Translations under genes and position numbers: made by a program
Assembly (NCBI GenBank): GCA_965230895.1
Contig: OZ246394.1
Location: 441,316-505,315 of the forward strand
DNA from: an uncultured Gammaproteobacteria bacterium
GTDB taxonomy: Bacteria > Patescibacteriota > Microgenomatia > Levybacterales > UBA12049
Length of the DNA stretch: 64,000 nucleotides
Reading direction: 5' to 3'
Shown: piece after piece, positions 3,678 to 48,621 of the stretch
Position numbering within the stretch: the first letter of the stretch is position 1
How the letters are laid out: each line of letters starts with the position of its first letter
The notes under the pieces: generated by a model
Databases searched by the model: none
Told to the model about the DNA's origin: nothing
Seen by the model: only the letters and a program-made list of their open reading frames with translations

Positions 3678-3824
3678 CTTTTGCCTGAGCGTAGTCGAAG
3701 GCTTTTTACACTTCGACTCCATTACATTTCGCTCAATGTAAATATAACATCCCATATTTAAACCTAAATTACTCATACAATTAGCCTTAAATTAGGCTAT
3801 TTTATATAAAATAGATTTACCCCC

Positions 3825-8055: not shown

Positions 8056-8072
8056 TCTCATTAACTTTAGTT

Positions 8073-14637: not shown

Positions 14638-15716
14638 ATCTTAGCATTAACAACCCGTTGTATTTTTTCTCTTTGAAGATTAAAGCTACCTATAATTATA
14701 CCTACAAGGCTAATAAACTCAAGAATGAACTGAATATACGGAAATAATAAGTAAGTAAAATCTAAGGTTTTAATAAATTTAACTAGCCACCAGCCATAAA
14801 TAATATGGGGTATTATAAATATAACTAAAAACCATTCATATCCCAAGCTAATCAAAATGACACTATTTAAAACAATTAATAGTATAGGAAATGGAAATAA
14901 ATGAGGAATTTTCTTATTAAGGTGGTAATAGCTCACAATTGCATCTTTTCTAAGATACGGCTTTTTAATTAATTGAATAAATGATGTTTCACCGTTGTGG
15001 TAAATAATAGCTTTCCTGGTACAAATAAACGGATCTTTTGTTATTTTTTTAATTCGATTACATAAATCTGTGTCTTCAATTCCACTCAAGTCAGGGTTCC
15101 ATCCTCCAACTTTTTTTAGTAAATCAGTAGGAAATGAACAATTCTCTCCCCAAATCTCGCTGACGATGAATTTATTTTTCTTTATCTTACTAGTAGTCTT
15201 GCTATACATATCTTTTATATAAATTAGTAATCTCTTCAAAGGGCTATTGAGACGGCTATTATGTAGCGGTGAAGGGTTACCATGACCGATTTCCATGAGA
15301 TATTTATCAATAATTCCAGATGTAGAATTTTTCGTTTGGCCACAGACCCCTGCCACATTCGGAGAATATGCCTTAAGAAGCTCTTCTAACCAACTCTGGT
15401 CTGCAAAACAATCATCGTCAAAGCAAATATATACTTTTCCTTTTGCATGCTTTAGTCCTGTATTTCGTGCTATTGAAAGTCCTGCATTTTTTTTATGACG
15501 TATTACTTTAATAGGATAGGATTTCGCAACTTTGTAAGTATTATCAGTTGAACCATCATCAATAAGTATAATTTCGAATTTATTACTTGGATATGTTTGG
15601 TTTAATAAAGATTCTATACTTTTTCTAATTATCTTTTCACCATTAAATGTACAAATGATTATTGAAGCATCTAGTTTTATTTCTTTATTCATAAACCTCC
15701 TTATAAAAATTTTCAA
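14634..15716 (-). CDS. Glycosyltransferase family 2 with C-terminal TM helices
   Basis: IIICTFNGEKIIRKSIESLLNQT...IILIDDGSTDNT; two C-terminal TM helices. Confidence 0.8.
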   Translation of the reverse strand: MKIFIRRFMNKEIKLDASIIICTFNGEKIIRKSIESLLNQTYPSNKFEIILIDDGSTDNTYKVAKSYPIKVIRHKKNAGLSIARNTGLKHAKGKVYICFDDDCFADQSWLEELLKAYSPNVAGVCGQTKNSTSGIIDKYLMEIGHGNPSPLHNSRLNSPLKRLLIYIKDMYSKTTSKIKKNKFIVSEIWGENCSFPTDLLKKVGGWNPDLSGIEDTDLCNRIKKITKDPFICTRKAIIYHNGETSFIQLIKKPYLRKDAIVSYYHLNKKIPHLFPFPILLIVLNSVILISLGYEWFLVIFIIPHIIYGWWLVKFIKTLDFTYLLFPYIQFILEFISLVGIIIGSFNLQREKIQRVVNAKI

Positions 15717-34302: not shown

Positions 34303-34375
34303 GCTCCCGTAGCTCAATGGATAGAGCACATCGGTTCTAACGATTAGGTTGGGGGTTCGAGTCCCTCCGGGAGTA
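34303..34375 (+). tRNA. tRNA-Arg (anticodon UCU)
   Basis: D-arm GCTCAATGGATAGAGC; anticodon loop GTTCTAA (U33, A37); T-arm GGGGGTTCGAGTCCCTC; one mismatch in the anticodon stem (C27/T43). Confidence 0.7.
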
Positions 34376-35875
34376 CTTATCGATATTTTTACTTTCAATT
34401 TGCTCCTTTAGGTTGTAAATAAAACCTAAATGAGGTGTTTGATAACTTCCATTTACAAAGATAAGTTTTTGCGGGAATATCGAACTCTGTATAGCATGTT
34501 TGCCTTCAATACTTGCTTTAGACCATACTTCATCCAAATGGGTAAGGTAGTAATGCATCCAATGCAAAAGTGTATCAATGTCTATCTGATCCATTTGCTT
34601 CTCATTGCTCAAACCTTTTTTTACAGAAAGATCCAAAGATAATTCATCCTTCATTTGCAAGTATTCTTCATCTGTATAAATACCTTTCAAATGCTTCATT
34701 TTCAGTGTATGTAAGATCTCTTCTGTTTGTTTGATATCCGCATTTACTTTATCGGAAGATTTGGAAAGCTCGGATAATTGTAATTCGTACTTTTCTTTAA
34801 GCATTTCCGTAAATATCTGCATTGGTTTATCTTTTACACAAATGTCTTTCAACAATTGAATAAATGCGTCGTCAGCTTTTTGTACAGGAACGCTGAAAGC
34901 TTTATGTTTCCTGCTACCACACACATAATAATTATATTTTTTCCCACTTTTTGATCTGCTTGGTGCACCTGTAAGACGTGACATACAAATTGCACAAAGC
35001 AATATACCTCTCAATGGGAAATCATCTCGGATATCACGCCGTACTGTATCTTTAACTTGCTTTCTTCCAGTTATTTGTTCACGCACACGGTAAAACAATT
35101 CTTCATCAATCATCGCTAGATGTTTTCCTTTTGCTTCACCATGCACTTTAGAAGTGATAATGCCCATGTAGTATTTGTTGGAAAAGATTTTTGAAACACT
35201 TTGTTTTATGAAAGGTTTATCATGTATTTGTAATTTATCGAGTTCTTTGCATGCCATACCAAGTGTAAGTTTTTCCTTATCAATTCGCTGCCATAAGTTT
35301 TTCAATTTAAAAAAAACTTTTTCATCGGGAATACCACAGCTTTTACCATTTACAATTCCTTTTTTATATCCAAGAGGGGGATAACTGTTTGTGTAGCCGT
35401 CCGTAAATCTTCGTTTCATTCCATCTTTGACACGAGCACTTTTAATATCGTTTTCGTATTGGCTTGCTGCACCAAGGATATTTTGCATGAATATTGCTTC
35501 AGCTGTCTCACCATTAGTTTCCGTTGCACTGATTAAAGAAACTCCGAATTTTGATAAATCACGCCGGATCAATAAGAAGTCCAACTGGTTACGACAAAGT
35601 CTATCCCATTTATAAATGGGAACAGCTGAAATATTATTATTTTTATCCGTACAGTATTTTAATAATTTTTGCAGTTCTGGACGATCCGTTGTTTTAGCAC
35701 TCTCTCCTTTCTCAATGAAATCATGCTTTATAACATATCCTTCTTTGTCAGCTTTTTTATGAATAATATCTTTTTGGCTATCAAGAGAGAAGTTGTCAGT
35801 TTGCAGCGATGTTGATACTCTTTCGTACCCAACAGCATACTTTATAATCATATCTTTATTGCTAGTTTTTATCAT
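34337..35875 (-). CDS. Large serine recombinase (resolvase/invertase N-domain plus recombinase and zinc-ribbon domains)
   Basis: YERVSTSLQ catalytic Ser region; Cys-rich zinc ribbon (CAICMSRL...YYVCGS); 3' end overlaps the tRNA-Arg 3' half. Confidence 0.8.
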   Translation of the reverse strand: MIKTSNKDMIIKYAVGYERVSTSLQTDNFSLDSQKDIIHKKADKEGYVIKHDFIEKGESAKTTDRPELQKLLKYCTDKNNNISAVPIYKWDRLCRNQLDFLLIRRDLSKFGVSLISATETNGETAEAIFMQNILGAASQYENDIKSARVKDGMKRRFTDGYTNSYPPLGYKKGIVNGKSCGIPDEKVFFKLKNLWQRIDKEKLTLGMACKELDKLQIHDKPFIKQSVSKIFSNKYYMGIITSKVHGEAKGKHLAMIDEELFYRVREQITGRKQVKDTVRRDIRDDFPLRGILLCAICMSRLTGAPSRSKSGKKYNYYVCGSRKHKAFSVPVQKADDAFIQLLKDICVKDKPMQIFTEMLKEKYELQLSELSKSSDKVNADIKQTEEILHTLKMKHLKGIYTDEEYLQMKDELSLDLSVKKGLSNEKQMDQIDIDTLLHWMHYYLTHLDEVWSKASIEGKHAIQSSIFPQKLIFVNGSYQTPHLGFIYNLKEQIESKNIDKYSRRDSNPQPNR

Positions 35876-36044
35876 TATCTATTCCGTTCGTCAATGCATT
35901 TTCTTTTCTCGCAACTTTCAGAATTTCATCACATATATTCCCAAATAATGTAAGTTGTTTAGCAAGCACTTCATCAGTTATTCCATTGGCATCTTCTCCT
36001 AATATCTCTCGGGCACGCTTTATTGTCATTTTTTGCCTTTCCAA
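35862..36044 (-). CDS. Small hypothetical protein (element-encoded)
   Basis: 60 aa, charged; overlaps the recombinase start. Confidence 0.3.
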   Translation of the reverse strand: MERQKMTIKRAREILGEDANGITDEVLAKQLTLFGNICDEILKVARKENALTNGIDNDKN

Positions 36045-36244
36045 CTTGCATCTTGTGTAACCAGTTTGTTAAAGTATGCCGCTTTATTTATGATGTGGTT
36101 TGCGTCTATTACTAATGCAACTAGCTTTTCGCACTTGTACAGACCAAGGTCACTGACAGCTTTGTAATAAAAAGCTATGCCTTTCAAATCATTAAATCTT
36201 TTTGCGATATTTTCGGCATGGTAAAGTGTTTCGGGATTATTCAC
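36026..36244 (-). CDS. Small hypothetical protein (element-encoded)
   Basis: 72 aa; overlapping gene chain typical of a compact mobile-element operon. Confidence 0.3.
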   Translation of the reverse strand: MNNPETLYHAENIAKRFNDLKGIAFYYKAVSDLGLYKCEKLVALVIDANHIINKAAYFNKLVTQDASWKGKK

Positions 36245-36830
36245 GACATTCGTTTTCCTCTCTTTCCTGTCTTTTTAAAGTTTCACTTTGTTCACGTAAT
36301 AGTTTTCGTCGCTCTTCTTCAGCGCTTAGTGTATTTTGTATTCCATAACCGTTTAGTAAAATTTTCGCCCGTTCATCCTGAAATTTTTCCATCGATAATC
36401 GAGTCTTATCATTGTTATCCTTATTATCATTATTGTTAGTCGTTATCTGTTCGTTATCCGATCGTTGCGTGGTCGATAGTTTGGTCGTTTCATCTTGAGC
36501 ATTAATGTTGAAAATGCTTGTATCTACAATCTTTGCGATAGTTCCCTTGTTCGTTGTTCTGATCGTTATCAGACCGTTTTTTTCAAGAAAAATCTTATCT
36601 GTTCGATAAATCATTTCAGTTGCACCATATGCTTCGTAATCTCCTATTAGTGCTTCACCAATATCTAATCCATCAAAAAGATCTTCAGAATGCCATCTTG
36701 CTCTAGTAGCAATTAATGTTAGTAAGCAGAATGCAGATTTTCTCTCTTTCAAAATCGACTCAAGCCTTTTTCCACGTTGTAACATTACGAAATTTACGTT
36801 TTTCTTCTCGTTATTATTTTCGTTCTCCAT
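36237..36830 (-). CDS. Putative replication-organiser/DnaD-like protein with low-complexity Asn/Asp linker
   Basis: N-terminal winged-helix-like region (FCLLTLIATRARWHSEDLFDGLDIGEAL); N/D-rich linker; charged C-terminus. Confidence 0.3.
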   Translation of the reverse strand: MENENNNEKKNVNFVMLQRGKRLESILKERKSAFCLLTLIATRARWHSEDLFDGLDIGEALIGDYEAYGATEMIYRTDKIFLEKNGLITIRTTNKGTIAKIVDTSIFNINAQDETTKLSTTQRSDNEQITTNNNDNKDNNDKTRLSMEKFQDERAKILLNGYGIQNTLSAEEERRKLLREQSETLKRQEREENECRE

Positions 36831-36999
36831 AGTTCTGTCTTTCTATCTCAACAGGTACAAATATGTATCCTTTACCCTCGCAGCCATGACAAATTCTACT
36901 TCCATGTTTCAGTGTTCCAAATCCGTGGCACACTGGACACATCTGAGCATAATATTTGGGATTTATTTCTTTAACTTTTATTTCGGGTGATTTTTCCAT
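36814..36999 (-). CDS. Zinc-ribbon small protein
   Basis: CPVCHGFGTLKHGSRICHGCEGKGY (CxxC...CxxC). Confidence 0.4.
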   Translation of the reverse strand: MEKSPEIKVKEINPKYYAQMCPVCHGFGTLKHGSRICHGCEGKGYIFVPVEIERQNYGERK

Positions 37000-37012
37000 C
37001 TATCTTTCTCAC

Positions 37013-37037
37013 AAAAAAAGCAACCATGAAAGGTTGC
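37013..37037 (-). terminator. Rho-independent terminator-like hairpin (minus strand)
   Basis: gcaacc-atgaaa-ggttgc stem-loop, preceded on the plus strand by a 7-A run (= U-run on minus). Confidence 0.45.
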
Positions 37038-37577
37038 TTCTGTATGAAAAAAGCTCAAGCAGAAATACTTTCCTTTCAGGCAAAAATTGCCAAAAACGGT
37101 TAAGTAATTCCTACTTGAGCCTTCCCTGAACTCGAATGGATTACATGTATGACTGTTACTATCCTACTTAAAGATAGCTCTTGATCAATGGCATGTAACG
37201 ACCCATTGTCGTTGTTCGCGGTCTCCTCGAAGTTGAACAGTACCGAAAATCTTTTGTTAACAATAAATTATCATGTATTTTGAAACTTTGCAACTTTAAT
37301 CTTATTCCTTTTTACGCCCCTGTTATGTACACTGTATATAGCTTGCAAAATATGCAATTTTATCCTATAATATAGGTATCATTTTAAGATTTGCCTAACC
37401 CTATTGGTTCGCCGATAGGCATGGCAAGAAAACCGTTGAAAGTAGTAAGCTCGTCGTCGAGTTCTTTCAACGGTCATATGGGGAAACTCATATGGGGAGA
37501 AATCCCGCTGGCGGCGAGCTTTTTGTATGGCTTCATTTTGTCCTCAAAAAGATCGTCCCATTTAGGAGGTGATACTT

Positions 37578-37772
37578 ATGTTAACAATGTTAATTATAAT
37601 GTTTATTGTTGCCGTTGGAATTGATCAAATGATGCACAATTACAGAGTACAAAAGCATAATGAGCAAGCCGAAATATACTGGCAAGATTATTTAGCAAAT
37701 AAAGAGCAAAGAGATGCACTAGATAGAAGTATGGGTGTTCCTACTTTGGAGGAAAGAGTACGGAAAAGTTAA
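37578..37772 (+). CDS. Small membrane protein (64 aa)
   Basis: Strong RBS AGGAGGTGA 8 nt upstream of ATG; N-terminal TM (LTMLIIMFIVAVGI) then charged tail. Confidence 0.4.
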   Translation: MLTMLIIMFIVAVGIDQMMHNYRVQKHNEQAEIYWQDYLANKEQRDALDRSMGVPTLEERVRKS

Positions 37773-38228
37773 TTACTTCCAATCTTTTTCTGTTTCGTAT
37801 CCAATTTGTAGCTTTGGTATATTTGACCATTTCTTATTTTTGGAAGCATTTGAATACCATGCAGGGTAATCCTTTATTTTGTAATAGCCTTGAGCTGTGC
37901 CGTTTGGTGAAGGTATGCTGTACCATGCTTGTGAATCCTGCTCATAATCCATACGAGCAAGTGTCTTCAGTATTTCGGATTTTAAGATCGGTTTAAGTCG
38001 CTCATAGAACTTATAGACCTGTCTTGTTGGGATACCAGTAAGATTTGCTATTTCCCATGCCGTGAAACCAAAATCACGACGTAGACGGTATATCATAAAT
38101 GCCAAATGCAGATGTTGATCAGACTTGAAGAGTTTATGACCAACAATAGTCATACGGTTTGTAAGAACTCTACTGTATACTTTCTTCCTTTTGTTTTCTT
38201 CTTTCAGTTTTGCCAACTCTTTTTTCAT
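37773..38228 (-). CDS. HTH DNA-binding protein (element-associated regulator)
   Basis: FTAWEIANLTGIPTRQVYKFYERL helix-turn-helix; basic N-terminus. Confidence 0.4.
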   Translation of the reverse strand: MKKELAKLKEENKRKKVYSRVLTNRMTIVGHKLFKSDQHLHLAFMIYRLRRDFGFTAWEIANLTGIPTRQVYKFYERLKPILKSEILKTLARMDYEQDSQAWYSIPSPNGTAQGYYKIKDYPAWYSNASKNKKWSNIPKLQIGYETEKDWK

Positions 38229-38493
38229 AATTCACTGGGGGACAACTCGGATTATATACAAGCCACTATACCTCTCTCCGAATTTTGGGTAAAATACTTT
38301 TTCTGCTATTCATTTTACAAAATTTTTGCAAGGGAACAATAAAGAAAATATATAATTACAGAATAAATATACTGTATTTGAAGCCTCTAATACTGAAACT
38401 CTCCCATTTATGCTAAGAATGCTGCTTCATAATTGCTGTCGATACTTTTAATAATGTTTTTCATTTCTTCAGTAATTACTTTTTTGTTCATAT

Positions 38494-40713
38494 TTATACT
38501 TTTACTAAATCCTTTTCAGCACGTTTGAGTGATACAGCATTAATAGCAACAATTATTGAGGATAAACTCATTAGAAGGGCAGCCCATTCTGGACGTAGCG
38601 CAATTTTGAATGCCGGATATAAGACCCCAGCAGCTACAGGAATTGCTAAGAGATTGTAAATTGAAGCCCAGAAAAGATTTTGTTTCATTTTGCGTACTGT
38701 TGCTTTAGAAAGTGTAATTGCTCGTAAAATATCAGTTGGATCAGATTTCATAAGCACTACTTTAGCTGTCTCAATTGCGACATCTGTACCAGCTCCGATA
38801 GCAATACCAATATTTGCTTGAGCCAATGCAGGAGCATCATTGACACCATCACCCACCATAGCAACAAATTTCCCTTCATTTTGAAGTTCTTTAACGTACT
38901 TTGCTTTATCTTGAGGCATGACATCTGCAAATACGCGTTGTATGCCGAGCTTTTTAGCGACTATTTCAGCCGTTTTCTCGTTATCACCAGTAATCATTGC
39001 AGTTTCAATACCTAAAGCATTCATCCTCTCTATAGCTTTTCTTGAGGATGCTTTGATTGGATCGGAAGCACCTACAACTGCTTTAATCTTTTTATCAACT
39101 GCAAGTACCATAATCGTTTGTCCATCTCTTAATAATGCATCAATATCATCTTTAAGCGGTTGTATATCAATGTTATTCTTCTCCATCAACTTAACAGTTC
39201 CGACAAGAACTGCCTTCCCATTAACGAGTGCCTTTACACCAAGTCCAGAAAGGTTTTCGAACTTTTCAACTTTTGCCTGTATTTTTACATTGCGTTTTTT
39301 TGCTGCTTCTAAAATAGCATTACTTAAAGGATGTGAAGATTTCTCCTCAGCTGCAGCCATTAAATGCAACATCTCCATTTCATCAACTCCTTTAAGCGTA
39401 ACAATTTTGGTAACTTGGGGCTTTCCATCAGTAAGTGTTCCTGTTTTATCAAGGACAACAGCTGCAATTTTTGATACTTGCTCAAGGGTTGGTGCGTCTT
39501 TAATAAGAATATTATGTTTAGCACCCAATCCTGTTCCAACTGCAACAGCCGTTGGTGTAGCTAATCCTAATGCATCGGGGCAAGCGATAACAACTGCTGA
39601 TATTGCAAAGGTAAGAGCAAACAGCAAAGGTTGTCCAAGAATAAAATACCAAACTACAAATGTTAGTAAACCACTTCCTACAGCAAGAACAACTAAATAG
39701 CCTGCAAAACGATCAGCCAAACGTTGTCCTGGAGCTTTTGAATTTTGTGCAGTCTCTACCATTTGAACGATCTGTGCCAATGCAGTGTCGTTACCAACCT
39801 TTGTAGCCTTAAATCGTACAGATCCTGTTTGATTAATAGATCCTCCAATAACTATATCTCCCTTTTTTCTCGTTACAGGAAGGGACTCTCCTGTAACTAA
39901 AGACTCGTCAATTGAAGTTTCGCCTTCAATAATCTCTCCATCTACTGGTACTTTATCTCCGGGTTTCAAAACGAGAATGTCTCCGAGTTGTACTTCAGAA
40001 GTAGGAAGCATTTTCTCTTTACCATTTTTAAGAACTCTAGCTTGCGGAGGTACGAGATTAAAGAGCGCCTGCAAAGCATCTGTTGTACCTCTGCGTGATT
40101 TCATTTCCATCCAGTGCCCAAAAAGTACAAAGGTAATTAACATCGCAGCCGCTTCATAAAATGTCTCATGACTTCCCATTAGAGTCAGCAGTACACTAAA
40201 AAGGTATGCAGCAGTAATACCCACGGCAATCAAAACTGACATACCCAACTTTTTAGTTTTAAATTCAAAGTATGATGAGTAAAGGAATAACCATCCTCCG
40301 TAAAAGAATACAGGTGTGGTTAACAAAAATAATATCCAAGGAGTTGGAATTGGTTCAGGAAGTGTCCAACCGAGTAACATTTGCCCCATAGAGTAAGCAA
40401 GTATAGGAAGAGTTAACAGTAGAGAAAAGAAAAATTTATTGCGAATATCTTCCTCCATAAGTTTTGCCATTTCACGACCTGTTAGTCCTGTATGATCCAT
40501 ACCCATTGTCATAGTTAAACCCATTTTTTGCTTTTCCCAAAATGACATCTCGGAAACTGGCTTCATATGGTGCATGCCATACTGTCCATCTTCTTTCTTC
40601 TCTTCAACCAATGCCATGCCGCATAGTGGACAAACACCTGGTTTGTTTTGTTGGACTTCTGGATGCATTGGACATCGGTAGCTCTTTATAAAAACTGTCG
40701 AATTATGTTTCAT
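38494..40713 (-). CDS. copA: Copper-translocating P1B-type ATPase
   Basis: N-terminal CPMHPE...CPLCGM metal-binding motif; TM CPD motif (ACPDALGLATP); DKTGTLT phosphorylation site; GDGVNDAPAL hinge. Confidence 0.9.
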   Translation of the reverse strand: MKHNSTVFIKSYRCPMHPEVQQNKPGVCPLCGMALVEEKKEDGQYGMHHMKPVSEMSFWEKQKMGLTMTMGMDHTGLTGREMAKLMEEDIRNKFFFSLLLTLPILAYSMGQMLLGWTLPEPIPTPWILFLLTTPVFFYGGWLFLYSSYFEFKTKKLGMSVLIAVGITAAYLFSVLLTLMGSHETFYEAAAMLITFVLFGHWMEMKSRRGTTDALQALFNLVPPQARVLKNGKEKMLPTSEVQLGDILVLKPGDKVPVDGEIIEGETSIDESLVTGESLPVTRKKGDIVIGGSINQTGSVRFKATKVGNDTALAQIVQMVETAQNSKAPGQRLADRFAGYLVVLAVGSGLLTFVVWYFILGQPLLFALTFAISAVVIACPDALGLATPTAVAVGTGLGAKHNILIKDAPTLEQVSKIAAVVLDKTGTLTDGKPQVTKIVTLKGVDEMEMLHLMAAAEEKSSHPLSNAILEAAKKRNVKIQAKVEKFENLSGLGVKALVNGKAVLVGTVKLMEKNNIDIQPLKDDIDALLRDGQTIMVLAVDKKIKAVVGASDPIKASSRKAIERMNALGIETAMITGDNEKTAEIVAKKLGIQRVFADVMPQDKAKYVKELQNEGKFVAMVGDGVNDAPALAQANIGIAIGAGTDVAIETAKVVLMKSDPTDILRAITLSKATVRKMKQNLFWASIYNLLAIPVAAGVLYPAFKIALRPEWAALLMSLSSIIVAINAVSLKRAEKDLVKV

Positions 40714-40787
40714 ACTATTTTTGCTCTGTATATCAGTGATCTGCTTAGAAGAAGTGCATATGATGCACCTCTCCCAAAAAGATTACT

Positions 40788-41813
40788 TTAGTGGCCACTA
40801 TGACCATCATTACCTAATGGTGCTTCGATATCCACGAGTAATTGTTCTATTTTGCTTATTTCTTGATTTTGAGTTGAAATTATATTGTTTGCTAATGTCT
40901 TTATTTCAGCTCGTTCTGTTTTCTTTAAAACCTCTTGTGCCATTGCAATAGCACCATTATGATGTTCAATCATTCCTTGAAGATATGTTTCTTCTGCTTC
41001 ATGAGATCCTTTACCTTTAATGCTCTGCATCATAGGTTGATATTGACCATTATCTTCGTATTCTGCATCGAACCAGGCTTTATGCCAGCCTTTCATATCT
41101 GCAACCTCTTTCTTTTGTGCATCAATAATACCTTGTGCTAAGGCTTCTATTTCTGGATTGGTAGTTACCGTTAGAATTTCTTCTGAAGTGGTAATAGCTT
41201 CTTCATGATGCGGTATCATGCCTTCAATAAAGGATTTATCATCCGTTACTGTAGCAGCATGAGAACTATGATCAGCAACACTTGCCGGCATCCTTGCGCT
41301 TTCATTTCCATGACCGTGCCCGGATGAAGTATCTATTGTCTTTGCGTAAGCTTGTAAGCCTACAAAAAGCAATCCTACAATTATTACAGAAAATATTGTA
41401 AGCTTTAGTAACTGTTTGAGCTGTAAATGAATATTACTTTTCAATAAATACCCAACCAAAGCAACAATGCCACCTAAAGGAATTAGGTATGTTGCATACT
41501 CTGGAAACTCTTCAAAGTGTTGCACACCTCCTGAAATCATTCCAATTCCTAAAGAAAGAATAAGTGAAAAGAAAATTACTTTGGCAAGTCCTTCTTCCTT
41601 AAAATCTTTCTTGTTAAAAATTGCTTCGTTAATTGTAGAAGCTGCAACAAAGATTATCGCTCCGATTATACCGAGAACTAAAAATCTTGGTGGATCAATT
41701 TGAAAATGAACTATTGCTCCTGAAAGAAATCCAGTACCAATAAAGAGTGAAATATATACTAAAAACTGAATTAAAATACTACGTAAGCGTTTTGTATTCT
41801 CCATTGAAATCAC
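40788..41813 (-). CDS. DUF305-domain membrane protein (copper-resistance associated)
   Basis: Two DUF305 HH motifs (MIPHHEEAITTSEEIL; MIEHHNGAIAMAQEVL) after 4-5 TM helices. Confidence 0.65.
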   Translation of the reverse strand: MISMENTKRLRSILIQFLVYISLFIGTGFLSGAIVHFQIDPPRFLVLGIIGAIIFVAASTINEAIFNKKDFKEEGLAKVIFFSLILSLGIGMISGGVQHFEEFPEYATYLIPLGGIVALVGYLLKSNIHLQLKQLLKLTIFSVIIVGLLFVGLQAYAKTIDTSSGHGHGNESARMPASVADHSSHAATVTDDKSFIEGMIPHHEEAITTSEEILTVTTNPEIEALAQGIIDAQKKEVADMKGWHKAWFDAEYEDNGQYQPMMQSIKGKGSHEAEETYLQGMIEHHNGAIAMAQEVLKKTERAEIKTLANNIISTQNQEISKIEQLLVDIEAPLGNDGHSGH

Positions 41814-41824
41814 CTCCTTTCAAT

Positions 41825-42097
41825 TTAAGACTTTTTCTTAAATACCTGCATTACTTCATTGATCGTTTCTTCTTTATTGCCTTTGCTTATCGCATCGGCA
41901 ACACAAGTCTTTAAATGGTTCTCTAGGATAACGTTTCCAGTTTCTTTCAGACCGCTCTGTACTGCTTGGAGTTGATGCATTGTATCAATACAATATGCAT
42001 CTGTTTCCACCATAGAAATAACCTTATCGAGGTGTCCTCTTGCGATCCTTAATCTGTGAGCAATGCGCTCTTGTTGATCTTTTGGTTGGTATGCCAT
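41825..42097 (-). CDS. csoR: CsoR/RcnR-family metal-sensing transcriptional repressor
   Basis: RLRIARGHLDKVISMVE...YCIDTMHQLQAV (DUF156 with Cys/His metal ligands). Confidence 0.85.
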   Translation of the reverse strand: MAYQPKDQQERIAHRLRIARGHLDKVISMVETDAYCIDTMHQLQAVQSGLKETGNVILENHLKTCVADAISKGNKEETINEVMQVFKKKS

Positions 42098-42120
42098 ATA
42101 TCCCCCCTATGGGGATATAG
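42098..42120 (-). promoter_or_regulatory. CsoR-type operator: GC-core palindrome TATATCCCC-cctat-GGGGATATA directly upstream of the csoR ATG
   Basis: 9-bp inverted repeat with 5-bp spacer, similar in style to known CsoR operators (ATACCC..GGGTAT type); overlaps the RBS. Confidence 0.6.
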
Positions 42121-42207
42121 TACCATAAAGAAGTTTTTTGTCAATATAATGAGAATATAGAAGTTTATATATTACAATTCTTAGATAAAAATTCTATGAG
42201 AAAGATG

Positions 42208-42840
42208 CTAACCCCTCCGTAATAAGCCTGAAAATTTTCCACGTACTTCAAAAGTATCGGTAGGTACTGTAAAAGGTTTGAGAGACGGGTTTCTTGGAAT
42301 AAGAGTAACATTACCATCTTTCATACCTCCATATCTTTTTAATGTTACTTCACCGTCTGAGACTGCTACAATAATATCACCTACCTGAACCTGAGATTGC
42401 AATTGTTGAATTAAAATTATATCGCCATCCCAAATTTCATCACTTATCATTGAGTCACCACTTACTTTGAGTGCATAACAGGTGGATGGACTTGACACCA
42501 TACTTCTAGGAACTGTTATCATTTGTCGTTCATCTTCAAACGGTTCAGATGGTGAACCTGCATGTATTATTCCCAATAAAGGTATGTTTACTGTGTTTTC
42601 AGTATAGCTTGGTGGTTTAAGTCCTCTTGATTGGAAACTTGCTTTTTTCAAATAACCTTTCTTTTTAATTAATTCGATGTGTTCATGTATAGTAGGTGTG
42701 GAATTCCCAAAGTGCTTAGCAATCTCCTGTAGAGACGGAGAAAATCCATGCTGCTGATGAAATGCAAAAACAAAATCTATTATTGCTTTTTGCTTGGGGG
42801 TCAGTGGACGTATGTGTTGGTTATTGACAAGCTTATCCAT
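42208..42840 (-). CDS. lexA: LexA-like S24-peptidase transcriptional repressor
   Basis: N-terminal wHTH (LTPKQKAIIDFV...GFSPSLQEIAKHFG); S24 catalytic Ser (VSGDSM) and Lys (TLKRYG); 210 aa. Confidence 0.8.
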   Translation of the reverse strand: MDKLVNNQHIRPLTPKQKAIIDFVFAFHQQHGFSPSLQEIAKHFGNSTPTIHEHIELIKKKGYLKKASFQSRGLKPPSYTENTVNIPLLGIIHAGSPSEPFEDERQMITVPRSMVSSPSTCYALKVSGDSMISDEIWDGDIILIQQLQSQVQVGDIIVAVSDGEVTLKRYGGMKDGNVTLIPRNPSLKPFTVPTDTFEVRGKFSGLLRRG

Positions 42841-42964
42841 AAGGTATATTATAGCCCTAATCTACCCCTAATACAAGGGGGACAAAAAAACCGCTCGACA
42901 GCAGTTTTTTGTGAGTTTTAGCCTCATTCATAGGCTATCACATGCTGCTTCAGAGGTCAATAGC

Positions 42965-43927
42965 ATGAATTATACTGACCAAGCAATTAGTGATCTTCTT
43001 AAAGCTATGGCTCGCACGAGCCTCAGCAACTTCGTTAGCGAAATAACTGTAAAGAAATCCGAGATAGAACAAGCTTCAAAGAGTTATGGCTACATTTCAG
43101 AAGTCTTGAAGACAAAAGCAGAGGAAGAAAAAATCCCCGCATTAATTCCATATCCTACATTTTTGATAGGTTCTTACCCCCGAGGAACAAAGATCTCACC
43201 ATTGAATGATATCGACATTTTTCTTGTAGCACACGCTTTTGGGACTTCATATGTTAAATGGAGCGACGGGATACATTGGTTTCACGGTGATGTCGAGAAA
43301 TTAAAGAAGTTTTCTCAAGATGGATACACAGTAAGCTCTGTTTCGGTACTGAATTCCATAAAGAAAGCACTTGAAGAGACATATTCTTCAGACATCAGTA
43401 GAAATCAGCAAGCAGTGACTGTATACCTCGAATCATATGGAATAACAATTGATATTGTACCTGCTGTCAGAATTAAAGATGAAGATTTTTTCATCATTCC
43501 TAGCGGCAATGGAAACCCAACTTGGAAATTTTCTCACCCACTACAAGACGCTTTACTACTGGATGAGATACACCTGGCACATAACAATACAATAAAACAG
43601 ACCTTGAAGATAGCAAAATACTGGAACAGAGAGCACAACCATAATAAGCTTAAGTCTTATCATATGGAAGCAGCTGCTTACCACATCTTTGGAAGCTTTT
43701 CAAATCCTACCGCAACAATTCTGGAGTCCTGTCTTACGTACTTCAGTCAGCTTACTTCATACCTGTACTACTGTTCTGATCCTACTGGGATGTCTGAGCC
43801 GATCAGTGGGTATTTGTCAGAGGATGTATTGGATCGCTTGAACCATGAAGTGAGGATCATGGAAGTGCAAAATGCAGCGGCGAAAGGATCTGAAGAATTT
43901 ATTAAATTTTTGAGGAAAGAGAAATAA
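42965..43927 (+). CDS. SMODS/CD-NTase-like nucleotidyltransferase (Pol-beta superfamily; candidate CBASS cyclase)
   Basis: LIGSYPRGTKISPLNDIDIFLV (GS...DxD); third acidic strand GITIDIVPA; C-terminal K..KYW helix (KIAKYWNREH); ATG at 42965 after AGAGGT. Confidence 0.6.
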   Translation: MNYTDQAISDLLKAMARTSLSNFVSEITVKKSEIEQASKSYGYISEVLKTKAEEEKIPALIPYPTFLIGSYPRGTKISPLNDIDIFLVAHAFGTSYVKWSDGIHWFHGDVEKLKKFSQDGYTVSSVSVLNSIKKALEETYSSDISRNQQAVTVYLESYGITIDIVPAVRIKDEDFFIIPSGNGNPTWKFSHPLQDALLLDEIHLAHNNTIKQTLKIAKYWNREHNHNKLKSYHMEAAAYHIFGSFSNPTATILESCLTYFSQLTSYLYYCSDPTGMSEPISGYLSEDVLDRLNHEVRIMEVQNAAAKGSEEFIKFLRKEK

Positions 43928-43930
43928 AGC

Positions 43931-44410
43931 ATGACAGATCATAAACTACTAAAACAAATGGCTGAAGAAGCTATCTACTCCGCAAAAGGACACTTTAAAT
44001 CAAGTGATTGGATTGGGTACTGTTTGTTTCTACTGATAGTAGTTCCATTTATCACTTCTAGCGTCATACTGATCTTCGACGTTGATGATTTTTGGACAAG
44101 AGTATTGGCATTTGTTGGAGCAGTGTTCTCTATGCTGGCGATAGTTTATTCGTTTACTTCCAATCAGCCTCAAGCTAAAAAAAGGATAGAACAACATATG
44201 ACTTTGGGAAATCAGTATCTCGGTATTTATTCAGAGATAAGGGAATTGGTTATGACAAATAGTCAGACACCTACAAAAATACAAAGATTACGCAAAGATC
44301 TCCATGAACTTAATGTGAAGACAAGCAATTGCAAAATTACTTTTTTTGGAAGGTGGCATTCGAAGATAGTTATACATAACGAAGTTGATACAAAATGGTT
44401 ATATGAATAA
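43931..44410 (+). CDS. 2TM SLATT-like effector/membrane protein
   Basis: 159 aa; two adjacent TM helices (WIGYCLFLLIVVPFITSSVILIF; VLAFVGAVFSMLAIVYSF) plus helical C-terminal region; 3 bp after the NTase gene. Confidence 0.5.
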   Translation: MTDHKLLKQMAEEAIYSAKGHFKSSDWIGYCLFLLIVVPFITSSVILIFDVDDFWTRVLAFVGAVFSMLAIVYSFTSNQPQAKKRIEQHMTLGNQYLGIYSEIRELVMTNSQTPTKIQRLRKDLHELNVKTSNCKITFFGRWHSKIVIHNEVDTKWLYE

Positions 44411-44428
44411 CGGAAGGGGGTGATAATC

Positions 44429-44638
44429 ATGGCAGCTAAAAAACCAATTAATCAAGGTAAACCATGGACAGGCGTTCAGGAAACAAATCTAAAAAAACTT
44501 GCTAAAGGAAATACTCCTACAGCTCTTATTGGATATAAGCTTGGAAGAACAGAAAGTTCTATACAATCTAAAGCTCAGGAACTGAATATATCTCTAAAAC
44601 CGGTTAACAAATCACCGTACAATCGGTTAAAGAAATAA
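44429..44638 (+). CDS. Small GcrA-N-like HTH DNA-binding protein
   Basis: WTGVQETNLKKLAKGNTPTALIGYKLGRTESSIQSKAQEL matches the W-T..E..L.KL....s...IA..LGRT HTH pattern; RBS AAGGGGGTGA. Confidence 0.4.
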   Translation: MAAKKPINQGKPWTGVQETNLKKLAKGNTPTALIGYKLGRTESSIQSKAQELNISLKPVNKSPYNRLKK

Positions 44639-44698
44639 TTATGTTCGCCTTTAAATATAACTGCTGACGCTATAGTAAACTTTGCTAAAGTGCGATAT

Positions 44699-44729
44699 AA
44701 GTGTTTGAACTTCCGTAACTCGGGGGTAC
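44699..44729 (+). repeat. 31-bp direct repeat copy A (aagtgtttgaacttccgtaactcgggggtac)
   Basis: 28/31 identical to 48535..48565; contains the TTACGG motif on the minus strand. Confidence 0.7.
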
Positions 44730-44871
44730 ACAAGGCTATTTTTATTATTTTTCTTCAACACTTTTTAACTTCTGAGGCTAAAGTGTGTTTGAGTCCCTTT
44801 AGGTAGTATTCAGATTTATAAGTTCGAATATATATACTCTGAGTCCTCTATATTGAATATACTTAACTCTC

Positions 44872-46128
44872 ATGATATACTTCCTTCTTATGCCTGAAGG
44901 AAATAGAACACATTATTTACAATCAGAACCATATAAACCCGGAGATACTAATTTGAAGGTTCAGTTTTTAAGTAGAGATTTACCTATAGAAAGTACAGGT
45001 GGTAGTAGTACTTATAGACTAGATTTTCTGCGATATTTAAATATGATGGGTTGTAACATTGAGTATAGCCTTTTTAAACATAAGCTTGCTCCACCAAATG
45101 AAGACAGCAACGGTTCACAATCACTTGCAGATATTGCAAATATTGTAACATTAAACTCTGGTGAACAAGCTCCAGTATGGAATGGATTACCTACTTCTAA
45201 AGAAAAAGATTTTTTCTTAGAAAGATTTCATAACTTTAAACCCGATGTTATTGTTATGGATAGAGTATGGTTGGGAGAACTGTTTGATCTTCTACCTAAC
45301 GAGTCTAAAACCATTAAATCAATACTGACACATGATGTTATCTACCAAAGATATGACGCTTTCAGAGCTGCTGGGCTAGAACCTTTCAAAAAAACGGGTA
45401 ACCTATCACACCCAGTTTGGGATAAAGATCTAGAATCACAACAACTTAGAAGGTCAGATATCATACTCGCCATTCAAAATGAAGATAAGAATAATTTCAC
45501 TCAAATGGCTCCAAATTCAGAAGTTATAAATATGCCAATGGCAGCTTCACTCCAACCTTTGAATCCAGACTTACAAGTACCTGGCAGAGTTTTATTTGTA
45601 GGGGGAAGTGCAAGCCACAATGTTGATGGTTTACAATGGTTTTTTGAAGATGTTTGGGATAAAGTCACAGATGAAGTACCTAAAGCGAGCCTACATGTAT
45701 GTGGAGATATCATTAAAGACTTCCAAGGGGACTATTACACAAGTACAGAATTTAGAGGTAGAGTGCCTGATCTATCAAATGAATATTCCCAAGCTGAAGT
45801 ATGTATTGTACCTGTAAGAGTAGGAAGTGGATTAAAAATAAAGCTAGTCGAAGCACTTGCTCACAGTAGAACTGCTGTATCAACAGAAATAGGTGTACAA
45901 GGAGTTGAAGATGTAATTGGCAATGGTGTACTTTTAGCAAATTCTGCTGATGACTTTGCAGAAACAGTAACTAATACCTTAAATAATCCTGTAAACCGAA
46001 AAATAAATGAAATAAAAGGTAGACAATATGCTCAAACGAAATTATCACCTGACATTTCCTACGGTAAATTCGTGCAAACGATTTATGAACGATTAACTTA
46101 TAATGAGGAAGGAAGTCATAATGGCTGA
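44872..46128 (+). CDS. Glycosyltransferase family 4 (possible TTG start near 44953)
   Basis: N-domain STGGSSTYRLDFLRYL; C-domain VPVRVGSGLKIKLVEALAHSRTAVSTEIGVQG...GVLLANSADDF. Confidence 0.65.
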   Translation: MIYFLLMPEGNRTHYLQSEPYKPGDTNLKVQFLSRDLPIESTGGSSTYRLDFLRYLNMMGCNIEYSLFKHKLAPPNEDSNGSQSLADIANIVTLNSGEQAPVWNGLPTSKEKDFFLERFHNFKPDVIVMDRVWLGELFDLLPNESKTIKSILTHDVIYQRYDAFRAAGLEPFKKTGNLSHPVWDKDLESQQLRRSDIILAIQNEDKNNFTQMAPNSEVINMPMAASLQPLNPDLQVPGRVLFVGGSASHNVDGLQWFFEDVWDKVTDEVPKASLHVCGDIIKDFQGDYYTSTEFRGRVPDLSNEYSQAEVCIVPVRVGSGLKIKLVEALAHSRTAVSTEIGVQGVEDVIGNGVLLANSADDFAETVTNTLNNPVNRKINEIKGRQYAQTKLSPDISYGKFVQTIYERLTYNEEGSHNG

Positions 46129-46981
46129 AAAAGACATACTACAGTTAAATCCAAAAGATTTTAAAGGTGGAGTTGAGCTTTGGGGAGTTTTACCACCATT
46201 TTATGATTCATCAAAAAAAGGAGTTAAAACTGGTATTCATGTACATGCATGGGATGAAATTGATGGGGTGAAAGCGATTGATAGGACTTTTAAAGAAGTT
46301 GAGATATTGTCTACAGTTAATAATAAAGAAAAAACGATTGGTATAAATTATGCTGATGCTGTTGACTACTTTGCGAAGAAAATTCTTGATTCAAAATTAA
46401 ATACAAATAGTTTTACAACACATTATGAGCATAGCTGTGAGAACTGTGTCCATGAAAAAGATAATAAACCAAATGCTCATGATAATCCAGTATTTTTAGT
46501 TCAAGAATTGTTTGATTCACGCATAGATTTAGCAGACATTTTAGAAGATGAGCAAACAATTAGTATAGATCATCGTAGTTACAGAAGAGGAATAACTCTT
46601 TGGGGCTCTAGTCCTGCAATCTTAAGAACTTCGCCAAAAGAATTGAGTGAAAAAGCAGGAATACATCTACATGCTTATAATGACGATGGTGAAAGAGAGA
46701 TTGATGGAACTTTTGGAACAGTAATCGTTAATAACGAGATGATAGACAATACAAGTGCACAACATTATATGGCTCAGAATGAGATTCCTTCATTACGCTC
46801 TCATCTTGAAGGATTAAAGTGTAATGGTTGCAATTTCTCACATTTCGACAAAGGATCAAGAAGCAGTCATGCACATACGTCTCATAACTGTGAAAATTGT
46901 GGGACTATCTTTGAATCTAATCCTACTATCAGTAATCCAGTTTTTTCTGTAATTGACTTTTTGGAGAAAAATAAACTTTAA
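46121..46981 (+). CDS. Internally duplicated His/Cys-rich protein of unknown function
   Basis: Two ~125-aa repeats sharing LWG..P, GIH[VL]HA, ID[GR]TF, H.CENC and NPVF motifs; ATG overlaps the upstream stop (ATGGCTGA) with RBS GAGGAAGG. Confidence 0.55.
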   Translation: MAEKDILQLNPKDFKGGVELWGVLPPFYDSSKKGVKTGIHVHAWDEIDGVKAIDRTFKEVEILSTVNNKEKTIGINYADAVDYFAKKILDSKLNTNSFTTHYEHSCENCVHEKDNKPNAHDNPVFLVQELFDSRIDLADILEDEQTISIDHRSYRRGITLWGSSPAILRTSPKELSEKAGIHLHAYNDDGEREIDGTFGTVIVNNEMIDNTSAQHYMAQNEIPSLRSHLEGLKCNGCNFSHFDKGSRSSHAHTSHNCENCGTIFESNPTISNPVFSVIDFLEKNKL

Positions 46982-47610
46982 ACGTTGTTAATTCCTTCGG
47001 CCTCTTCTATAAAAAATTCTGTTCCATCAGATTTCAGAACAAAGTAACCTGTATTTTCAATGCATCCACTAGGTAATTCTTCATACTTTGCAAATCCCAA
47101 ATGTACCAACAGTATTTTCATCATGTTTCCATGACTTGTTATTAGAATATTTTTGTCAGGGTATGCCATTGCTGTTTCTCTAAGAAATAACATTACTCTA
47201 TTTATGACTTCTTCATCATTTTCCATGTCTGGAACAATTCTTGCTTTCAATCTTTCTTGATACGTTAATTCATAAAATTTTTTATATTTCTCAAGTAATT
47301 TCCCTTCTAACTTTTTACCTTCTAGTTCTCCATAAAATCTTTCCCGAAGTAATTTTGTAGTTTCTATTACTAATTTATTATTTGATGCTATTTGTTTGGC
47401 AGTCAATTTAGCCCTTTGAAGATCTGAAGAAAATATTGCGTGGAAACGAATGTTTGAAAACTTATTTGCAAGAGTTTCTGCTTGAATTAACCCCTTCTCA
47501 GAAAGTGAAGGGTCTCTATGTCCTGACAAAACTCCCAAGATCTGGTCTTCGGAATGACCATGTCTAACAATATAAAAAGTGCAATATGAATTATTAGTAT
47601 CGCTCATCAA
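46978..47610 (-). CDS. Histidine phosphatase family protein (phosphoglycerate-mutase-like)
   Basis: YIVRHGHSE catalytic RHG motif; 210 aa. Confidence 0.75.
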   Translation of the reverse strand: MMSDTNNSYCTFYIVRHGHSEDQILGVLSGHRDPSLSEKGLIQAETLANKFSNIRFHAIFSSDLQRAKLTAKQIASNNKLVIETTKLLRERFYGELEGKKLEGKLLEKYKKFYELTYQERLKARIVPDMENDEEVINRVMLFLRETAMAYPDKNILITSHGNMMKILLVHLGFAKYEELPSGCIENTGYFVLKSDGTEFFIEEAEGINNV

Positions 47611-47656
47611 TTTAATTATATTATTTAAAACTTTATATACAAAATATCACAACTTA

Positions 47657-48439
47657 TCATACTGCCAAGTAAAAAATCGGAGATTTTTTTAATTGTTTAT
47701 GTAACGGAGCTGCCATATGAAAGATTGGGTTTCCACCTCGTGTAAAGTCTTTCCAGATAATATCTGCTGGGTTTACTGGGGTATGTGGCCCATGTTCATG
47801 CCCATCAATAATAGCTGTCCAGTTAGTTCTATCTAAGGTACTTTCAAATATAGGAGGTAACGCATCATAAGCCACGGAGTCATCATTAGGCACTCCTCTT
47901 ATTGGTTTTATTGGGTAATGTTGAACCCATATTTTTTCTTGGGATGTTATATTTGAAATTGCTTTTTCAAATTTGGGATATACTTTCTGGAAGGTTAGTT
48001 CATCATATTTCTCTTTTCTTTGTTTGCCTTTAAGATTCCTTAAACTATTATAATCATCTCGTCCTATGCTAGTACTCATACCTGCTATACCTATATCTTT
48101 AATGCCATTACTTATTTTATATTCATTTCCATGCAACATTGTAACTCCAGCTTCCCCTTCTAAAATTCTGCTTATTTCAGCTTCATTTCCAGCATCTTCG
48201 TCATGGTTACCTAATACTGCATAAGATTTATCACCAATACCAATTGAATTCAATATTAATGCCAAGTCAAATGCTTGTTCAGTTGTACCCCTATGGGTTA
48301 AATCCCCTGACATAATCAGTCCATCCACATTATTCATCTTGTTAAATATGTCCAGCCACTGATTTTTTGAATAATATCTATTATTATTCTCTACTCCAAT
48401 ATGCAAATCACTTACTGCTGCCAGTTTTAAAGTTTCCAT
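47657..48439 (-). CDS. Metallophosphoesterase (calcineurin-like)
   Basis: AVSDLHIG, GDLTHRG, GNHD, GHEH motifs. Confidence 0.8.
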   Translation of the reverse strand: METLKLAAVSDLHIGVENNNRYYSKNQWLDIFNKMNNVDGLIMSGDLTHRGTTEQAFDLALILNSIGIGDKSYAVLGNHDEDAGNEAEISRILEGEAGVTMLHGNEYKISNGIKDIGIAGMSTSIGRDDYNSLRNLKGKQRKEKYDELTFQKVYPKFEKAISNITSQEKIWVQHYPIKPIRGVPNDDSVAYDALPPIFESTLDRTNWTAIIDGHEHGPHTPVNPADIIWKDFTRGGNPIFHMAAPLHKQLKKSPIFYLAV

Positions 48440-48534
48440 AACTAATATATATTATATCAGAACATATCAATAAACACTATAAAGTCCTAGATAAATGAGT
48501 AAAGCTGCTGATATGCTACATTAATCGAACCTAA

Positions 48535-48565
48535 AAGTGTTTGAATATCCGTAACTCGGGAGTAC
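48535..48565 (+). repeat. 31-bp direct repeat copy B (aagtgtttgaatatccgtaactcgggagtac)
   Basis: Pairs with 44699..44729; the two copies bracket the 4-gene island. Confidence 0.7.
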
Positions 48566-48621
48566 TAACAGATTAAAATAATTGACAAACTCTTCGTAAC
48601 CTTGGATACTATTTCTTAGAT

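Follow-up and report, generated by a model that had tools for sequence, protein, structure and literature searches.

Paired repeats around a four-gene cassette are probably attachment sites of large serine recombinase elements at tRNA-Arg genes

Contig OZ246394.1 contains a 64-kb stretch of Patescibacteria-type DNA (hereafter the window; G+C ~36%) in which two copies of a 31-bp sequence flank a 3.8-kb segment with four genes, one of them for a 286-residue protein built of two similar halves. Are these repeats attachment (att) sites that bound an acquired cassette, or a regulatory element shared by the genes beside them? The initial annotation offered both readings. Our analysis indicates that they are probably attR-type sites of elements that are driven by a large serine recombinase (LSR) and target the 3' ends of tRNA-Arg genes, arranged here as a tandem array with a recombinase-less cassette.

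Repeat A is AAGTGTTTGAACTTCCGTAACTCGGGGGTAC at 44699-44729 and repeat B is AAGTGTTTGAATATCCGTAACTCGGGAGTAC at 48535-48565. We recovered the same coordinates and the same identity (28/31) that had been described for this pair, at a spacing of 3836 nucleotides (nt). The two copies can be stretched leftward to 44696 and 48532 (34 nt, 88% identity). Pairwise alignment gives ~34 nt as the limit of their nucleotide likeness, which rules out a longer nucleotide repeat, and the likeness extends further at the protein level only. With up to three mismatches allowed, the window holds just two copies of the 31-mer, A and B. A chance origin of the repeats is excluded because none of 100 shuffled controls gave a 31-mer match and because the motif recurs at nine independent places. 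No other att copies were found within 34-49 kb, and a 65% match inside copA at 39391 was taken as chance.

Several other kinds of sequence were considered for the repeats and set aside. An Rfam scan of the whole window at gathering thresholds returned four tRNAs and a LOOT RNA and nothing at the repeats, which rejects a structured RNA or riboswitch. Three candidates were dropped from the sequence alone: an extracytoplasmic function (ECF) sigma promoter, since the spacing is unfit for GAAC..CGT; a Xer/dif site of an integrative mobile element exploiting Xer (IMEX) or a pdif module, since the 11-6-11 layout lacks dyad symmetry; and an integron attC site, since there is no attC-like palindrome. 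A viral origin was also rejected: neither the 31-nt motif nor relatives of the duplicated protein were found in IMG/VR, and a tblastn search of INPHARED phages gave no match to the protein.

The likely source of the repeats lies ~10 kb upstream of repeat A, where a tRNA gene and a recombinase gene meet.

34303..34376, plus strand: tRNA-Arg(TCT), the proposed integration target (ARAGORN, Rfam tRNA, sequence, motif scan).
34337..35875, minus strand: LSR of 512 residues with Resolvase, Recombinase and Zn_ribbon_recom domains (Pfam, translation).

One boundary thus has the intact tRNA-Arg(TCT), and the other repeats part of its 3' end. The tRNA 3' end is ...CCGGGAGTAC / ...TCCCTCCGGGAGTAC, repeat A ends in CGGGGGTAC and repeat B in CGGGAGTAC. 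A crossover core, GGG[AG]GTAC, is found at 34369-34376 in the tRNA, at 44722-44729 in repeat A and at 48558-48565 in repeat B.

All three recombinase domains score above their cut-offs (PF00239, 99 bits; PF07508, 33 bits; PF13408, 29 bits), and the protein carries the motif YERVSTSLQ. Its architecture of Resolvase, Recombinase and zinc ribbon is that of phiC31, Bxb1, TndX and CcrAB. Large serine integrases from phages and from ICEs (integrative and conjugative elements) use short att sites and integrate unidirectionally. The best NCBIfam match of the window LSR is CcrB, at 93 bits against a cut-off of 900, followed by XisF at 86 against 375; by these scores it is a relative of the CcrB and XisF equivalogs and not a member. 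Homologue P0155 is 100% identical to it. No recombination directionality factor was identified in the window. The LSR gene abuts and overlaps the tRNA 3' end, so that its product ends in ...KNIDKY followed by SRRDSNPQPNR and a stop, and these final 11 codons are translated from the antisense of the tRNA.

It is hardly credible that the repeats are tRNA 3'-end direct repeats of a tyrosine integrase, or similar by chance. The final 9-10 nt of each do match the tRNA-Arg 3' end, as such direct repeats would. However, only ~10 of the 31 nt come from the tRNA, the remainder matches the LSR tail and not the T arm, and there is no tyrosine integrase among the open reading frames (ORFs) of at least 150 residues in 34.3-48.6 kb. 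Copy A as a decayed tRNA was rejected too: aligned with the tRNA of the related contig L005, it is near random upstream of the final ~10 nt.

The part of each repeat that is not tRNA-like reads as the C-terminus of an LSR. The peptides below were read on the recombinase strand, with the frame set by the Tyr codon at GTAC.

44651..44729, minus strand: repeat A and its extension, a displaced LSR C-terminal tail that reads Y-PRVTEVQTLISHFSKVYYSVSSYI and then a stop; P arm and core at 44699-44729.
48487..48565, minus strand: repeat B and its extension, a displaced LSR tail with the YQQL family motif that reads Y-SRVTDIQTLLGSINVAYQQLYSFI and then a stop; P arm and core at 48535-48565.
Tail peptide, window A: YPRVTEVQTLISHFSKVYYSVSSYI, then a stop.
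Tail peptide, window B: YSRVTDIQTLLGSINVAYQQLYSFI, then a stop.
Tail peptide, L005: YSQIPALQTLFVSMNENYLQLNRYV, then a stop.
Tail peptide, L100: YPQVTELQTLLEAFQATYQQLHQYI, then a stop.
Tail peptide, L101: YPQVTEIRTLLEAIRETYQQLYQYI, then a stop.
Tail peptide, L091: YPQVAEIRTLIDAFYETYQQLHQYI, continuing.

The 24-residue tails of window A, window B, L005, L100 and L101 share a common stop codon. The tail of L091 and L099 runs past it (...HQYIPINYL, then a stop), and that of L097 is shortened by an earlier stop. The "ctgctga" that had been read as an upstream extension of the repeat is, in copy B, the antisense of conserved Tyr-Gln-Gln codons, but the two copies are 6 nt out of register and copy A is unaligned there.

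Relatives of the recombinase provide the joined form of the site. In L091, an LSR (P0156) that is 55% identical to that of the window has the same geometry at tRNA-Arg(TCG), and ~7.7 kb away, at 3774-3804, stands AAGTGTTCGTATTTCCGCAACTTGGGGGTAC, 26/31 identical to repeat A. Among the 13 closest LSR homologues, ten have tRNA-antisense C-termini (..RDSNPQP..) and three (P0157, P0163 and P0164) have a contiguous tail (..KYPQVIDIRTLLASMEESYQQLHKYIHV), reading ...KY followed directly by PQVIDIRTLLASMEESYQQLHKYIHV. In L102, the contig that encodes P0157, the LSR body matches L091 10034-11506 and the joined tail matches L091 3766-3855. The L102 site, AAGTGTTCGTATATCGATAACTTGGGGGTAC joined to TTCGAAAATTTTTGAGC, combines the P arm of the L091 distal repeat with the P' arm on the tRNA side of L091, which places the attP of this LSR family inside the 3' end of the recombinase gene. 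A P+P' relation of this kind is the defining mark of a site-specific integration system, and the relatives carry a contiguous attP. Integrated LSR homologues (P0155-P0183) end in tRNA-antisense peptides such as ..RDSNPQP.., ..GIRTRD.. and ..GLEPRT.., so in this clade the C-terminus of the LSR alone shows both the integration state and the type of target tRNA.

Conservation is not even along the tail. Across all copies, identity is 21-29/31 in the 31 nt beside the crossover and 18-36/48 in the 48 nt upstream of them, which form the rest of the tail. This difference suggests a constraint at the DNA level and fits a putative P half-site of the recombinase, beyond mere coding sequence. A motif scan of metagenomes returned five further loci, of which 3-4 are clearly the same site.

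Is the segment between the repeats a unit of its own? It contains four genes, on which gene calls and Pfam agree with the initial annotation.

44890..46128 (alternative ATG at 44872), plus strand: glycosyltransferase of GT4 type (GT-B); PF13692, 70 bits; gene call in L001.
46121..46981, plus strand: duplicated protein of 286 residues; two modules of a beta-rich domain and a zinc ribbon; translationally coupled to the GT4.
46978..47610, minus strand: histidine phosphatase, branch 1; PF00300 (His_Phos_1), 137 bits; RHG motif in IVRHGHS.
47657..48439, minus strand: calcineurin-like metallophosphoesterase (MPE); PF00149 (Metallophos), 50 bits; motifs DLH, GDLTHRG and GNHDED.

The ATG of the duplicated protein overlaps the GT4 stop (ATGGCTGA), and the histidine phosphatase gene is convergent with the duplicated-protein gene and overlaps it by 4 nt.

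The same four genes occur in L005, in the order tRNA-Arg(TCG), four genes, motif, unrelated genes, and with no recombinase. L005 and the window share 75.5% nucleotide identity over 3.8 kb, beginning 9 nt before GTAC, and the duplicated-protein homologue is 77% identical. On the left, homology starts at the final bases of the intact tRNA-Arg(TCG), ...CCGGGTGTAC joined to ACAAGGCTA; on the right, it stops just past AAGTGTTTGAAGTGCTGGAATTTGGGAGTAC, and the genes beyond have no homologue anywhere in the window. Since homology is limited to the cassette, the cassette is a discrete unit found in two genomic contexts. The suggestion of att-like boundaries around an acquired cassette is therefore supported: the sites are probably of attR type, and in another organism the cassette lies beside another tRNA-Arg, with homology ending at the att sites. 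The overlap between the GT4 and duplicated-protein genes is kept in L005. Between the window and L005, dN/dS is 0.088 for the GT4, 0.098 for the duplicated protein, 0.054 for the histidine phosphatase and 0.117 for the MPE, with every dS above 1. These low values indicate that the four genes are under strong purifying selection and functional, not debris.

The regulatory reading holds that the repeats are a shared operator or promoter for the GT4 operon and a downstream 44-residue peptide, or for the MPE operon. Their positions would suit such a role, with copy A ~160 nt upstream of the GT4 and copy B upstream of both the 44-residue ORF (by 57 nt) and the MPE start (by 96 nt, the same as in L005). 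The tail remnant of copy B also overlaps a weak match to a sigma-70-like promoter on the minus strand (48503-48476). However, the motif ends elements beside unrelated genes in L091, L097, L100 and L101, in L102 and L103 it lies within the recombinase ORF, and L005 has a real tRNA end in place of the left copy. Promoter-like matches are at the level of shuffled sequence (21 vs 19.6). The 44-residue ORF is absent from L005, and in the window it has a better -35/-10 pair of its own downstream of the repeat. The best sigma-70-like match of the region, TTGACA-17-GATACT at 48582-48610 on the plus strand, lies just outside repeat B and upstream of this membrane-peptide ORF, which thus needs no repeat for its promoter. 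We regard a regulatory role as very unlikely, and common control of the cassette and the 44-residue peptide finds no support.

We propose that the window belongs to an element family of Patescibacteria-like genomes in which an LSR would drive insertion into the 3' end of a tRNA-Arg gene. The attP would lie within the recombinase gene, in its last ~25 codons. On integration, the body of that gene would be fused to the tRNA antisense and gain a new 11-residue tail, and the original tail piece (~75 nt, the last 31 nt being the conserved P half-site and the core GGGnGTAC) would be stranded at the element's distal end. Both 31-bp repeats would be stranded pieces of this sort. The putative array would then span 14.2 kb, in the order tRNA-Arg(TCT), LSR element, repeat A, cassette, repeat B.

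34303-34376 plus P': attL, tRNA-Arg(TCT) joined to the P'1 arm.
34377..44729, no strand: element 1, a recombinase-bearing island of 10,353 bp bounded by attL and repeat A; contains the LSR, small ORFs, LOOT RNA, CopA, DUF305, CsoR, LexA, SMODS+SLATT and a 69-residue ORF.
44699-44729: repeat A, the P1 arm joined to the cassette left arm P'c; a hybrid, attP-like junction.
44730-48565: cassette of 3,836 bp with four genes.
48535-48565: repeat B, the Pc arm joined to the chromosomal flank B'; distal attR of the array.

Recombination between attL and repeat B would release the whole 14.2 kb, and recombination between attL and repeat A would release the 10.35-kb element alone. By its sequence, the cassette resembles a cis-mobilizable element, having no recombination or transfer genes and an att-type sequence on both sides. 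The initial annotation was probably right about the att boundaries, but it missed the tRNA and recombinase 10 kb upstream, the 14.2-kb tandem array and the origin of the repeat as a displaced piece of the recombinase gene. Within the LSR gene and 58 nt downstream of the tRNA, GGTGTTTGATAACTTCCATTTAC at 34434-34456 (plus strand) partly resembles the P arm, in direct orientation, which could reflect either chance or an accessory site.

The anatomy of the sites, the split and joined recombinase genes, the two contexts of the cassette and the selection on its genes are direct observations; from them we infer that the island is mobile at present and that its sites are still active. A number of observations weigh against this and against the tandem arrangement. 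Neither an empty attB nor a circular attP or excision junction for the window element was found among GTDB relatives and Logan contigs. The GTDB relatives are too remote to show synteny; even the closest, a Levyibacteriota metagenome-assembled genome with a 71% identical Vut_1, has none past Vut_1. Short-read contigs that carry the upstream Vut_1 gene either break inside the tRNA or continue exactly like the window. An identical copy of the downstream SOD gene occurs in five contigs, of which four reach past the gene, and all four carry the cassette. As no SOD or Vut_1 contig has a variant junction, the island is fixed in the sampled population. No conjugation, transfer or virion genes were recognised, and the cassette is known from one other contig, L005. 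The LexA and copper genes of element 1 could be chromosomal; if the cell has no LexA but this one, the element boundary or else the biology is out of the ordinary.

The junction at repeat A raises a difficulty of its own. Canonical LSRs recombine attP with attB only, so the hybrid P1+P'c requires either a non-canonical event or the integration of a pre-formed composite. The P'c arm bears a weak likeness to genuine P' arms, being 16/30 identical to the window's own P' and 8-9/30 identical to those of L091, L102 and L103; for comparison, B' arms score 3-15/30 against the four P' arms. As a possible LSR remnant, the cassette left end gave an antisense translation with a vague likeness to LSR C-termini and with stops present, and arm identities of 15-16/30 to the window's own P' and 5-9/30 to the other three.

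Alternatively, the 14.2 kb could be a single element, with B as its one working attR, the four genes as plain cargo at its distal end and A as a dead internal remnant of an earlier recombination event. Copy B still has the family consensus in its tail (YQQL; 27/48 against active elements), while in copy A the tail sequence upstream of the 31 nt is decayed (18-21/48). All of the SOD contigs that reach past the gene retain the cassette, and LSRs are not known to integrate at attL or attR. Even so, the 31-nt P arm of copy A is conserved like that of B (24-27/31 against other elements), its tail ORF is open and of the right length, and in L005 the cassette stands alone beside a tRNA-Arg with no recombinase. 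We therefore think a single element rather improbable and favor the tandem array. The two differ only in which sites remain active, and the repeats are att sites either way.

Element 1 carries several cargo genes. The minus strand at 38494-42840 encodes a copper module, made up of the P-type ATPase CopA, DUF305 and CsoR, and a LexA that scores at equivalog level (148 vs 111 bits). At 37392-37506 on the plus strand, between the small ORFs and a 151-residue ORF, there is a LOOT RNA (RF03000; 85.5 bits, with the gathering threshold at 46.4), a structured RNA that may thus travel on mobile elements. Directly left of repeat A, at 42911-44410 (plus strand), are a SMODS-type cyclase and a SLATT two-transmembrane (2TM) effector. 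They make up a minimal pair like those of the cyclic-oligonucleotide-based anti-phage signalling system (CBASS), with PADLOC matches to Cyclase at E=2e-45 and to a 2TM effector at E=2e-12.

Elsewhere in the window there are two more repeat pairs. Positions 2118-2159 and 2594-2635 hold two 42-nt copies, 86% identical and 476 nt apart, each with the palindrome CCCTCTCCTCCTAGGAGAGGG. Positions 12329-12392 and 15610-15673 hold a 64-nt direct repeat (72% identity, 3281 nt apart) in a region of low G+C (~0.30).

What the cassette encodes is clearer for some genes than for others. The GT4 matches PF13692 (Glyco_trans_1_4) over residues 239-372 at 70 bits against a threshold of 27, and no NCBIfam equivalog matched it. 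The histidine phosphatase and MPE have their catalytic motifs, with every NCBIfam equivalog score under its cut-off. PADLOC gave no convincing defence match for the cassette proteins; the MPE matched candidate PDC-S10 weakly (E=1e-5).

The internal duplication of the 286-residue protein was confirmed by aligning its halves (E=2e-14, 28% identity), which have in common the five motifs named before, LWG, GIH[VL]HA, ID.TF, H.CENC and NPVF. It had also been said to have no assignable family. This holds for curated libraries, as Pfam, NCBIfam, PHROG and PADLOC gave none, but a sizeable unannotated family does exist: an exhaustive HMMER search returned 212 cluster representatives at E<=1e-3, 37 of them at E<=1e-30. 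A word index of 5.8 billion sequences contained five homologues. In alignments of the family one module is present twice: a zinc ribbon (CxxC ... H.CxxC) and SNP come after a beta-rich domain with GG..WG, G.H.H and D.TF. H40, H42, H182, H184, D195, T197, C234, C237, C257 and N272 are among the invariant residues. In the window protein, the first CxxC knuckle of the first ribbon is lost, and this region (residues 93-118) is the sole low-confidence part of the AlphaFold2 model.

That model, built from 53 sequences, is confident overall (pLDDT 89, pTM 0.85), but no known fold matched it: Foldseek searches of PDB and BFVD gave only ribbon matches of ~50 residues. A family profile run against PDB sequences found zinc fingers only, and Pfam scans of family members found zinc-ribbon models only.

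The pairing of the duplicated protein with the GT4 is kept within the window lineage and specific to it; in other phyla the protein has other neighbors. Outside the candidate phyla radiation (CPR), these are Nmad2-like genes, ImmA/IrrE M78-HTH genes (RmrA/CapP-like in PADLOC) and DUF3368/PDC-S70 PIN-like genes. Such a neighborhood is found in Bacteroidota-like contigs, at L006 1320-3475 and at L008 5147-7355 (L008/L009), and on an Azospirillum plasmid (L104, NZ_CP032324) at 7980-11309. Shared between these contigs and an alphaproteobacterial plasmid, it has the look of a conserved module of four genes. At L090 2360-4477 a homologue stands beside an M78 gene, and at L007 10001-11435 (Bacteroidota-like) a homologue overlaps by 8 nt a gene with a MazZ-like dATP/dGTP diphosphohydrolase N-terminal domain (PF18909, 103 bits). 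These neighbors hint at mobile-element, stress-response or nucleotide-modification biology. A literature search on Nmad2 gave nothing relevant. Tentatively, the GT4 and its zinc-ribbon partner might form a complex whose substrate, perhaps to be glycosylated, is a nucleotide, a nucleic acid or part of the envelope, and the two phosphatases might process a precursor, intermediate or product that is phosphorylated.

How does this locus compare with systems already described? The closest parallel is the set of ssrA islands of Dehalococcoides, where DsiB, a CcrB-like serine recombinase of ~500-540 residues, is encoded on the reverse strand beside attL (McMurdie et al. 2011, PMC3146451). Those islands occur in tandem downstream and are bounded by direct repeats of the target 3' end, each with an extra conserved motif upstream of it; many lack an integration module and were proposed to be cis-mobilizable (PMC3146451). 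The window likewise has an LSR beside attL at the 3' end of a tRNA or tRNA-like gene, a tandem arrangement, and repeats with a motif. Unlike in Dehalococcoides, the target is tRNA-Arg (two isoacceptors) and not ssrA, the host is of Patescibacteria type, the crossover falls inside the recombinase ORF, and the "extra conserved motif" is the displaced 3' end of the gene. Nor did we see in the window a second, small recombinase like DsiA or CcrA, and the CcrB score is 93 vs 900 bits.

Cis-mobilizable elements (CIMEs) and tandem accretion have been described for ICESt1/ICESt3 of Streptococcus thermophilus (reviewed by Guedon et al. 2017, PMC5704250). Like a CIME, the cassette has no integration or transfer genes, has att sites on both sides and lies in tandem with a recombinase element, and composite co-excision would be possible. 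ICESt1 and ICESt3, in contrast, have tyrosine integrases, identical core repeats and conjugation, whereas the window has an LSR, half-sites with a short core and no recognisable transfer machinery. In classic LSR systems attP lies outside int and the targets are mostly inside protein-coding genes (Figure 1 legend, PMC5704250); here attP is inside the recombinase gene and the target is tRNA-Arg. An att site within an integrase gene is known from the SSV-type ("suicidal") tyrosine integrases, which are described as occurring in archaea alone (Badel et al. 2021, PMC8371274). The window resembles these in having the site in the recombinase's own gene, a tRNA target and an integration that splits the gene to opposite ends of the element. 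However, SSV-type integration costs a large part of the enzyme, and the bacterial LSR trades ~24 residues for 11 tRNA-antisense ones and keeps its recognised domains intact.

Site-specific islands in tandem, CIMEs and serine recombinases with tRNA-like targets are thus all already known. What is unusual is an att site inside the reading frame of a serine recombinase, with a tail that differs between the free and integrated forms. The specificity for tRNA-Arg (two isoacceptors), the Patescibacteria setting and the presence, as a passenger, of an unannotated family with no fold match are unusual as well. A limited literature search found no description of this LSR/tRNA-Arg element type in Patescibacteria.

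One speculative and rather doubtful idea is that the tail swap, from ~24 residues of the form P.VTE.QTLL....YQQL.QYI in the free element to 11 tRNA-antisense residues in the integrated one, acts as a switch for the direction or level of recombination without a directionality factor. If true, the archaeal split integrases would have a bacterial counterpart among serine recombinases, and recombinase-less cassettes with a tail fragment, such as the four-gene module, could supply the switch or compete for it. In metagenomes, the 31-mer offers a practical way to search for islands of this kind and the cargo they carry; the range seen here covers copper resistance, a CBASS-like pair, a LOOT RNA and the four-gene cassette. 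An LSR with its att site in its own reading frame might extend the genome-engineering toolbox with compact, tRNA-directed integrases, and the duplicated zinc-ribbon family is a reasonable target for structural and defence-system work. The mobile elements of Patescibacteria are poorly charted. With a recombinase, the tRNA-Arg that it targets, both att half-sites, the joined attP of a relative and a recombinase-less passenger cassette, this locus offers a system that is concrete and can be tested.

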